A DNA stretch of 64,000 nt from Escherichia coli (GCF_024502345.1 NZ_JALDNN010000001.1); one strand, 5' to 3'; shown: positions 39,736 through 40,443, counted from the first letter of the stretch. Program-made: numbers and translations. Notes: generated by a model from the sequence alone, not told the origin.

Positions 39736-39790
39736 GGTACAAGTAAAAAGGAGTAGCAAGTTGAGCCATCTTGCTGCTCCTTTTTGCATT
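39736..39790 (+). terminator. Terminator after hdeAB
   Basis: aaaaaggagtagcaag...cttgctgctccttttt hairpin plus T-run. Confidence 0.6.
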
Positions 39791-39795
39791 TTTAT

Positions 39796-40443
39796 ATGAC
39801 AGCAGAATTTATTATACGTCTTATACTCGCGGCAATTGCCTGTGGCGCTATTGGCATGGAAAGGCAAATGCGCGGCAAAGGAGCAGGGTTACGCACACAT
39901 GTATTAATTGGCATGGGAAGCGCCCTGTTTATGATTGTTTCGAAATATGGTTTTGCTGACGTGCTGTCTTTAGATCACGTCGGACTGGACCCCAGCCGTA
40001 TTGCTGCTCAGGTGGTGACGGGCGTCGGGTTTATCGGTGCAGGTAACATTCTCGTTCGTAACCAAAATATTGTAGGTTTGACGACGGCAGCGGATATCTG
40101 GGTGACCGCCGCCATAGGTATGGTTATTGGCAGTGGTATGTACGAACTGGGTATTTATGGTTCAGTGATGACCTTGCTGGTGCTGGAAGTCTTCCATCAA
40201 TTAACCTTCCGCCTGATGAACAAAAATTACCATTTACAGCTGACATTAGTGAACGGTAATACGGTATCAATGCTCGACTGGTTTAAGCAGCAAAAAATAA
40301 AAACTGATTTAGTTTCGTTGCAGGAAAATGAAGATCATGAAGTGGTCGCCATTGATATCCAGCTTCATGCCACAACGTCGATAGAAGATCTGTTGCGATT
40401 ATTAAAAGGTATGGCAGGGGTGAAAGGCGTTTCAATTAGCTAA
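39796..40443 (+). CDS. yhiD: MgtC/SapB-family inner membrane protein
   Basis: 215 aa from ATG at 39796; the track ORF starts at an upstream TTG. Confidence 0.87.
   Translation: MTAEFIIRLILAAIACGAIGMERQMRGKGAGLRTHVLIGMGSALFMIVSKYGFADVLSLDHVGLDPSRIAAQVVTGVGFIGAGNILVRNQNIVGLTTAADIWVTAAIGMVIGSGMYELGIYGSVMTLLVLEVFHQLTFRLMNKNYHLQLTLVNGNTVSMLDWFKQQKIKTDLVSLQENEDHEVVAIDIQLHATTSIEDLLRLLKGMAGVKGVSIS

Follow-up and report, generated by a model that had tools for sequence, protein, structure and literature searches.

In Escherichia coli, the rpsU-dnaG-rpoD operon contains an internal terminator, T1, between rpsU and dnaG, and dnaG has a poor ribosome-binding site. Initiation without a Shine–Dalgarno (SD) sequence on leadered mRNAs needs a local lack of structure, and it draws on A/U-rich leaders that are bound by S1. 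The junction between hdeB and yhiD shares features with both systems. As in rpsU-dnaG-rpoD, a Rho-independent hairpin and U-tract lie between highly and weakly expressed genes annotated in one unit, and yhiD, like dnaG, is a downstream gene with a weak translation-initiation region. It differs in that the hdeB terminator tail reaches the yhiD start (RNA 3′ ends 8 to 9 nt before the AUG), the U-tract forms the entire initiation region, and co-transcription of hdeB and yhiD is putative. Like SD-independent leadered mRNAs, yhiD has no anti-SD complementarity, is A+U-rich, and is cheap to open, with a putative role for S1; unlike them, it has a stable hairpin immediately 5′ of the initiation site. 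The yhiD AUG resembles that of leaderless mRNAs in having no usable upstream ribosome-binding sequence, but we find no credible promoter that would start transcription at the AUG, and upstream transcripts demonstrably reach at least position 39787. Finally, attenuators and riboswitch platforms also place a terminator directly before a coding sequence, and the supplementary tables of Adams et al. 2021 (PMC7815308) class the RNA end at this site as "upstream ORF"; here, however, there is no leader, no antiterminator fold, and no Rfam family, and the hairpin simply follows the hdeB stop codon.

The window, a stretch of 64,000 nt from E. coli (GCF_024502345.1, NZ_JALDNN010000001.1), carries the acid fitness island at ~38.1 to 41.9 kb in reverse orientation relative to K-12. 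We assigned gene identities and starts from the list of open reading frames (ORFs) and, through a base-for-base alignment with the window, from the K-12 BW25113 annotation in RefSeq. The island comprises hdeD (38131–38703, minus strand), hdeA (38958–39290, plus strand), hdeB (39406–39732, plus strand), yhiD (39796–40443, plus strand), dctR (40485–41015, minus strand), and slp (beyond dctR, minus strand). hdeB encodes a periplasmic acid chaperone (RefSeq transfer from K-12; Pfam HdeA/HdeB family, E = 3.5e-26), and yhiD encodes an inner-membrane protein of 215 amino acids that belongs to the MgtC/SapB family, scoring 133.7 bits against Pfam PF02308 (MgtC; cut-off 31.4) over residues 9 to 136 (E = 5.4e-39). 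The locus was found in 5412 of 5426 complete E. coli genomes.

On its other side, yhiD converges on dctR, with 41 nt between the two stop codons (40444–40484) and no strong terminator hairpin; the sole hairpin returned by a terminator scan is a weak one of 6 bp on the minus strand, inside dctR. Among the entries examined in the tables of Adams et al. 2021, no Term-seq 3′ end falls in this gap, and antisense overlap of the yhiD and dctR transcripts is possible. Sequence matching the window breaks off just past yhiD (~40448 onwards) in O157:H7 and in several isolates from humans, with no dctR under the match, so the dctR side of yhiD is a variable junction among E. coli lineages.

A terminator hairpin against the yhiD start codon

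The first-pass annotation of this DNA had placed a terminator hairpin and T-run directly against the yhiD ATG, and the closer analysis bears this out. The hairpin (39743–39787, plus strand) has the form GUAAAAAGGAGUAGCAAG, a 9-nt loop, and CUUGCUGCUCCUUUUUGC, with a GC core at 39750–39780, the loop at 39761–39769, and an A5/U5 extension of the stem; CTTGCTGCTCC is part of the stem. It begins 10 nt after the hdeB stop codon (TAA, 39730–39732), and the GC core begins 17 nt after it. The core consists of 11 bp, including one U·G pair, and folds with −17.8 kcal/mol. The minimum free energy of the extended hairpin is −28.7 kcal/mol, compared to −9.5 ± 2.3 kcal/mol for 200 dinucleotide shuffles (z = −8.4), none of which was as stable, and the hairpin takes up 69% of the ensemble. 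It also dominates the fold of the larger context. It is followed by the U-tract TTTTTGCATTTTTAT (39781–39795, plus strand), which spans the 15 nt from the GC core to the yhiD ATG, contains 11 U in 15 positions, and has its last base directly before the ATG at 39796. As RNA this tract reads UUUUUGCAUUUUUAU and has a T-weight of 4.20. Our own computation with the d'Aubenton-Carafa formula gave a terminator score of +14.8 on the plus strand and −1.8 on the minus strand. The hairpin had been missed by a simple terminator scan because its loop of 9 nt exceeds the limit of 8 nt set there. This pattern occurs once in the window and not at all in the shuffles.

Mapped RNA ends show that this hairpin operates in vivo. 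In supplementary files 1 and 3 of Adams et al. 2021 (PMC7815308), MG1655 positions 3655910 and 3655911 (minus strand) appear as Term-seq 3′ ends with scores of 61,204 and 193,294, annotated as "upstream ORF −8/−9 yhiD" in two growth conditions; the sequence listed beside them is exactly this hairpin followed by TTTTTGCA. These positions correspond to 39788 and 39787 in the window (plus strand), 8 and 9 nt before the yhiD ATG and 7 to 8 nt past the GC stem. The abundance of ends so close to the start codon indicates that the hdeB hairpin is a working terminator, and RNAs ending there are terminated just short of the yhiD AUG and able to form the fully paired hairpin. The stem, the U-tract, and the in vivo ends thus all agree with what is expected of an intrinsic terminator. 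The geometry is uncommon, not unique: per condition, the same tables hold about a dozen other 3′ ends lying 4 to 13 nt 5′ of start codons, for example those of nuoA, rplU, secB, and rsmB.

Three further functions for the hairpin were considered and set aside. A bidirectional terminator is disfavored by the weaker minus-strand hairpin (−18.7 kcal/mol, with an A/C mismatch and a score of −1.8), and no 3′ end on the opposite strand near 39787/39788 occurs among the entries examined around this coordinate in the tables of Adams et al. 2021. We rejected an attenuator or riboswitch on the grounds of a single dominant fold with no alternative antiterminator structure; an Rfam search of the hairpin region returned only a chance microRNA match (E = 0.13). 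As for control by translation of hdeB, a ribosome terminating at a stop codon 17 nt before the GC core should not block hairpin formation.

The arrangement is strongly conserved within Escherichia. Of 5417 E. coli genomes, 4838 share exactly the same 58 nt of hairpin, U-tract, and ATG, and the rest show one or two base differences. We aligned seven lineages (the window, K-12, two divergent E. coli, E. whittamii, and two other Escherichia species) and found both stem arms and the spacing to the ATG to be invariant, while the U-tract differs at one spacer base (A or G at 39788); variation falls in the last hdeB codons, the spacer between stop codon and hairpin, the loop, and the first yhiD codons. 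With the stem invariant in all Escherichia sequences of the alignment, there were no two-sided changes from which covariation could be scored. One naturally occurring change in the stem, A39755G, present in strains 472 and F765, replaces an A-U pair by G·U at a cost of only 1.3 kcal/mol. Both wobble pairs become A/C mismatches in the minus-strand RNA, whose hairpin is already the weaker one. That wobbles are tolerated in the plus-strand RNA only suggests that selection acts on the plus-strand RNA.

Three observations on neighboring or related sequences are recorded here. In E. coli BHD6, an IS903B element interrupts the locus at the yhiD start codon, its insertion point lying directly behind ...GCATTTTTAT (equivalent to 39795/39796 in the window; ~401–520 of the BHD6 sequence); hdeB and the terminator are intact, and there is no yhiD sequence beyond the IS903B junction within the 853-bp stretch. 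A contig assigned to "Flavobacterium paronense" (tig00000209, 1500–2060) carries E. coli hdeB-yhiD sequence with homopolymer-length errors, almost certainly as contamination of the assembly. Within the hdeA-hdeB spacer, the tables of Adams et al. 2021 (PMC7815308) list very strong Term-seq ends at MG1655 3656317/3656318 (scores 176,188 and 406,178), which fall at ~39381, 25 nt before the hdeB ATG at 39406. No canonical hairpin and U-tract is present at ~39381, and these ends probably mark a processing site that gives a monocistronic hdeA RNA.

Origin of the yhiD transcript

The first-pass annotation had proposed that yhiD expression comes from terminator read-through, from a leaderless-type mechanism, or from a promoter inside hdeB. 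This list merged the origin of the mRNA with the mode of its translation, and it left out the option that we regard as likeliest for translation, SD-independent initiation on a leadered mRNA. Of its three routes, read-through and a local promoter each find some support (an operon unit with parallel induction for the former; a σ70 peak and uncoupled expression for the latter), while the leaderless route fares badly on account of a poor −10 element.

We consider it probable that the hairpin is a partial internal terminator, that yhiD is reached by read-through with or without a minor local promoter, and that translation then proceeds independently of an SD. In this model, the inverted repeat and U-tract would end most transcripts from the hdeA promoter at 39787/39788, and the terminated RNAs would lack the yhiD start codon. 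YhiD would be made at a low level from the minority of transcripts that pass the terminator, mainly read-through hdeAB-yhiD RNA and possibly, in addition, RNA from a weak local σ70 promoter. We infer both the fraction that reads through and the share of such a promoter. The net effect would be discoordinate expression, with very abundant HdeA and HdeB and little YhiD. Many studies treat hdeAB-yhiD as one database unit, and in one transcriptome hdeA, hdeB, and yhiD rise together (log2 fold changes of 5.42, 5.84, and 5.21). Co-regulation does not prove co-transcription, and this parallel induction is weak evidence for read-through because all genes of the island share control by GadE/X/W, RpoS, and H-NS.

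The alternative that survives best is that yhiD is effectively its own transcription unit, with an efficient terminator upstream and most of its mRNA starting from a weak σ70 promoter, located either in the last part of hdeB or in the spacer and perhaps modulated by FNR bound within hdeB. We regard this as the less likely account. Myers et al. 2013 (PMC3688515) treat yhiD as a separate unit and report a σ70 ChIP-seq peak centered at 3,653,950, which corresponds to ~39771 in the window, ~25 bp before the ATG, and rises from 63 to 346 anaerobically. The same study labels an FNR ChIP peak inside hdeB as "yhiD (w/i hdeB)" and gives aerobic/anaerobic ratios of 0.10 for yhiD, compared to 0.35 for hdeB and 0.42 for hdeA. 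Acid shock doubles hdeA and hdeB RNA, not yhiD RNA, in the wild type, and yhiD differs from hdeAB in hupA and hupAB mutants, where it is again given as its own unit. The filter described by Adams et al. 2021 (PMC7815308) is also informative: it drops 3′ ends after a stop codon unless a dRNA-seq transcription start site (TSS) lies no more than 200 nt upstream, and drops ends with a TSS within 20 nt. Retention of the −8/−9 yhiD end would therefore imply that a TSS was called between ~39588 and 39767. Entries for the hdeB-yhiD region, which would give a TSS coordinate, are absent from the SMRT-Cappable-seq, Kim 2012, and Cappable-seq supplements.

Against these observations stands the DNA itself. 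Neither a consensus scan nor our own position weight matrix (PWM) scan found a −35/−10 motif above the window background between 39500 and 39830, and the candidate −10 and −35 elements, unlike the hairpin, are not conserved in other Escherichia lineages. Internal TSS calls are common in dRNA-seq data. AT-rich, H-NS-bound DNA contains many spurious promoters. An FNR-like motif, TTGATctgaATCCA, does lie inside hdeB (39533–39546, plus strand), 18 to 32 bp from the published FNR peak centers, but at ~230 bp from the σ70 peak it does not occupy an activating position. Those centers, 3,654,199 (Table 1) and 3,654,213 (Table S5) in Myers et al. 2013 (PMC3688515), fall at ~39508–39522 by our own coordinate conversion, which sets the yhiD ATG at 3,653,925 in U00096.2 and was checked against the U00096.3 Term-seq coordinates (offset 1977). 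For one candidate −10, TATACT at 39822, the resulting TSS would lie within yhiD.

The surroundings of this TATACT deserve a separate description. The sequence cTTATACTc (39819–39827, yhiD codons 9 to 11) contains a good −10-like element (5.7 bits) and resembles sigmaS-type promoters; the −35-like ATGACA paired with it derives from the yhiD start codon itself, and the start would fall within the gene. Such an intragenic promoter could be a spurious source of the σ70 ChIP signal.

A concrete version of a separate promoter can be drawn. A speculative weak σ70 promoter (39721–39749, plus strand) would combine a −35 TTGCCG (39721–39726) with a −10 TAAAAA (39744–39749) across 17 bp, with a predicted TSS at ~39756, within the 5′ arm of the hairpin; RNAs starting there would be unable to fold the hairpin and so would avoid termination. 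Its PWM score of 6.67 is reached about four times per kilobase in the window and is not above chance, and four other Escherichia lineages have CAAAAA in place of its −10. The one external observation in its favor is the K-12 σ70 ChIP-seq peak at ~39771. That K-12-like strains carry a weak σ70 promoter inside the terminator, with the A-tract TAAAAA of the hairpin as −10 and the start in the 5′ arm, is in our judgment doubtful. If true, transcripts from the embedded promoter, lacking the hairpin, would pass the hdeAB terminator and bring yhiD under control independent of hdeAB, for example by anaerobiosis, and with the U-tract also serving as ribosome landing site the locus would be a compact overlap of terminator, promoter, and initiation region.

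Far less probable is a leaderless mRNA, in which transcription would begin at the A of the ATG at 39796 and a 70S ribosome would initiate without a leader. The start codon is an AUG, the center of the σ70 peak is compatible, and TTGAGC (39761–39766) followed after 17 bp by TTGCAT (39784–39789) would give a TSS at 39796. However, TTGCAT is the sole −10 for that TSS, has no A at the key position 2, and scores 0.9 bits; it reads TTGCGT in two other Escherichia lineages. The −35 lies in the variable loop (CCGAGC and TTATGC elsewhere), and the better −10-like hexamers nearby would start downstream of the AUG.

The yhiD start codon and its translation

RefSeq places the yhiD start codon at 39796–39798. 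We aligned 11 homologues of 47 to 73% identity (a metagenomic Escherichia-like orthologue and sequences from Citrobacter, Edwardsiella, Ewingella, Rouxiella, Salmonella, Pantoea, and Izhakiella), all of which start with Met in the column of 39796 and share the motif M-x-x-[ED]-[FLM]-x-x-R. At the level of sequence comparison, this confirms ATG 39796 as the true start. We therefore attach next to no probability to the idea that the annotation is wrong and that translation begins at the upstream TTG 39784 or at a downstream Met, codon 21 or 25. The TTG shares the yhiD reading frame, and there are ATG codons at residues 21 and 25; but none of the homologues has anything that matches the four residues added by TTG 39784, that codon likewise has no SD, and a start at Met21 or Met25 would delete the conserved first hydrophobic (transmembrane) segment (residues 4 to 20, with a conserved R8), with the Pfam MgtC model beginning at residue 9.

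The earlier observation that no SD precedes yhiD also stands. Over the 25 nt 5′ of the ATG, the best duplex with the 3′ end of 16S rRNA has an energy of 0 kcal/mol. Among 35 annotated genes of the K-12 neighborhood, yhiD alone is at 0, the others ranging from −0.9 to −11.0 kcal/mol, and yhiD is the richest in U at −15 to −1; gadX, yhjE, pitA, and mdtE are also weak in SD energy. A gene without an SD is unusual, not rare.

The value of 0 kcal/mol over 25 nt holds in all six other Escherichia loci as well as in the window. Outside Escherichia, by comparison, all 45 Enterobacterales loci with a placeable start codon keep an SD (−2.9 to −11.9 kcal/mol). The SD-less start abutting a terminator is thus derived in the Escherichia lineages sampled. 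On the metagenomic contig with the 73%-identical orthologue, the genes are again arranged as hdeA-hdeB-yhiD-dctR; the hdeB-yhiD spacer there measures 122 nt, and in it an unrelated, weaker hairpin and T-run end ~80 nt before the ATG. The Citrobacter homologue has a gap of 18 nt to the preceding gene and a GAGAG SD.

The gene context in Citrobacter is worth describing on its own. In three Citrobacter loci (1–4400), the closest non-Escherichia homologue (55 to 56% identity) comes last in a row of genes, behind ureF-ureG-ureD and a urea transporter gene, and it still faces a convergent GerE/dctR-like regulator. From this arrangement, the yhiD-dctR pair appears to predate its linkage to hdeAB. In both Escherichia and Citrobacter the pair sits in an acid-resistance context.

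Returning to the probable reading, in which yhiD is carried on a leadered RNA, the most likely mode of translation, whatever the origin of the transcript, is SD-independent initiation on the U/A-rich tract. The initiation region has no anti-SD complementarity, is unstructured, and is A/U-rich (39781–39830 is 72% A+U). Opening −10 to +13 costs 5.0 to 7.6 kcal/mol, at the low end among neighboring genes. The cost rises to 10 to 13 kcal/mol for −15 to +15 because the A-U extension of the stem is reached, and to 22 to 25 kcal/mol for −20 to +20, which requires melting of the core. On the leadered RNA, the GC stem would end 15 nt before the AUG (core end at −16), followed by UUUUUGCAUUUUUAU and the AUG, and we infer that the SD-less UUUUUGCAUUUUUAU would act as an unstructured, U-rich landing site for 30S binding, probably assisted by S1. 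SD-independent initiation predicts weak translation, which fits a proteome in which YhiD went undetected while HdeB was detected.

As with a misannotated start codon, we give very little credence to translational coupling, in which a speculative mini-ORF of 12 codons (39761–39799, plus strand), running from a TTG at 39761 in the loop to a TGA at 39799 that overlaps the yhiD ATG as ATGA, would be translated and its terminating ribosome would restart at the overlap: a perfect SD, AAGGAG, lies in the 5′ arm at 7-nt spacing, and ORF, SD, and ATGA overlap are present in the window and most E. coli, but SD and TTG are buried in the −28.7 kcal/mol hairpin, E. coli E69 has CCG and SCPM-O-B-8794 has TTA in place of the TTG with the rest unchanged, the TGA follows automatically from Met-Thr (ATG ACN), and by our own estimate the chance of a start codon 5 to 9 nt past an SD-like run is ~0.2.

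Meaning for the acid fitness island

We conclude that the hdeB-yhiD arrangement is a previously undiscussed case of well-known mechanisms. A terminator set against an SD-less start codon is an ordinary way to hold a downstream gene low, not a new mechanism. In this case it would allow one locus to yield very large amounts of the chaperones HdeA and HdeB and only traces of the membrane protein YhiD, and the database unit "hdeAB-yhiD" should not be taken to mean equal expression of its three genes. The junction shows cleanly, in a natural setting, how a terminator's U-tract can double as the complete upstream initiation region of a gene that lacks an SD, and models of terminator read-through and of initiation without an SD could usefully be tested on it.
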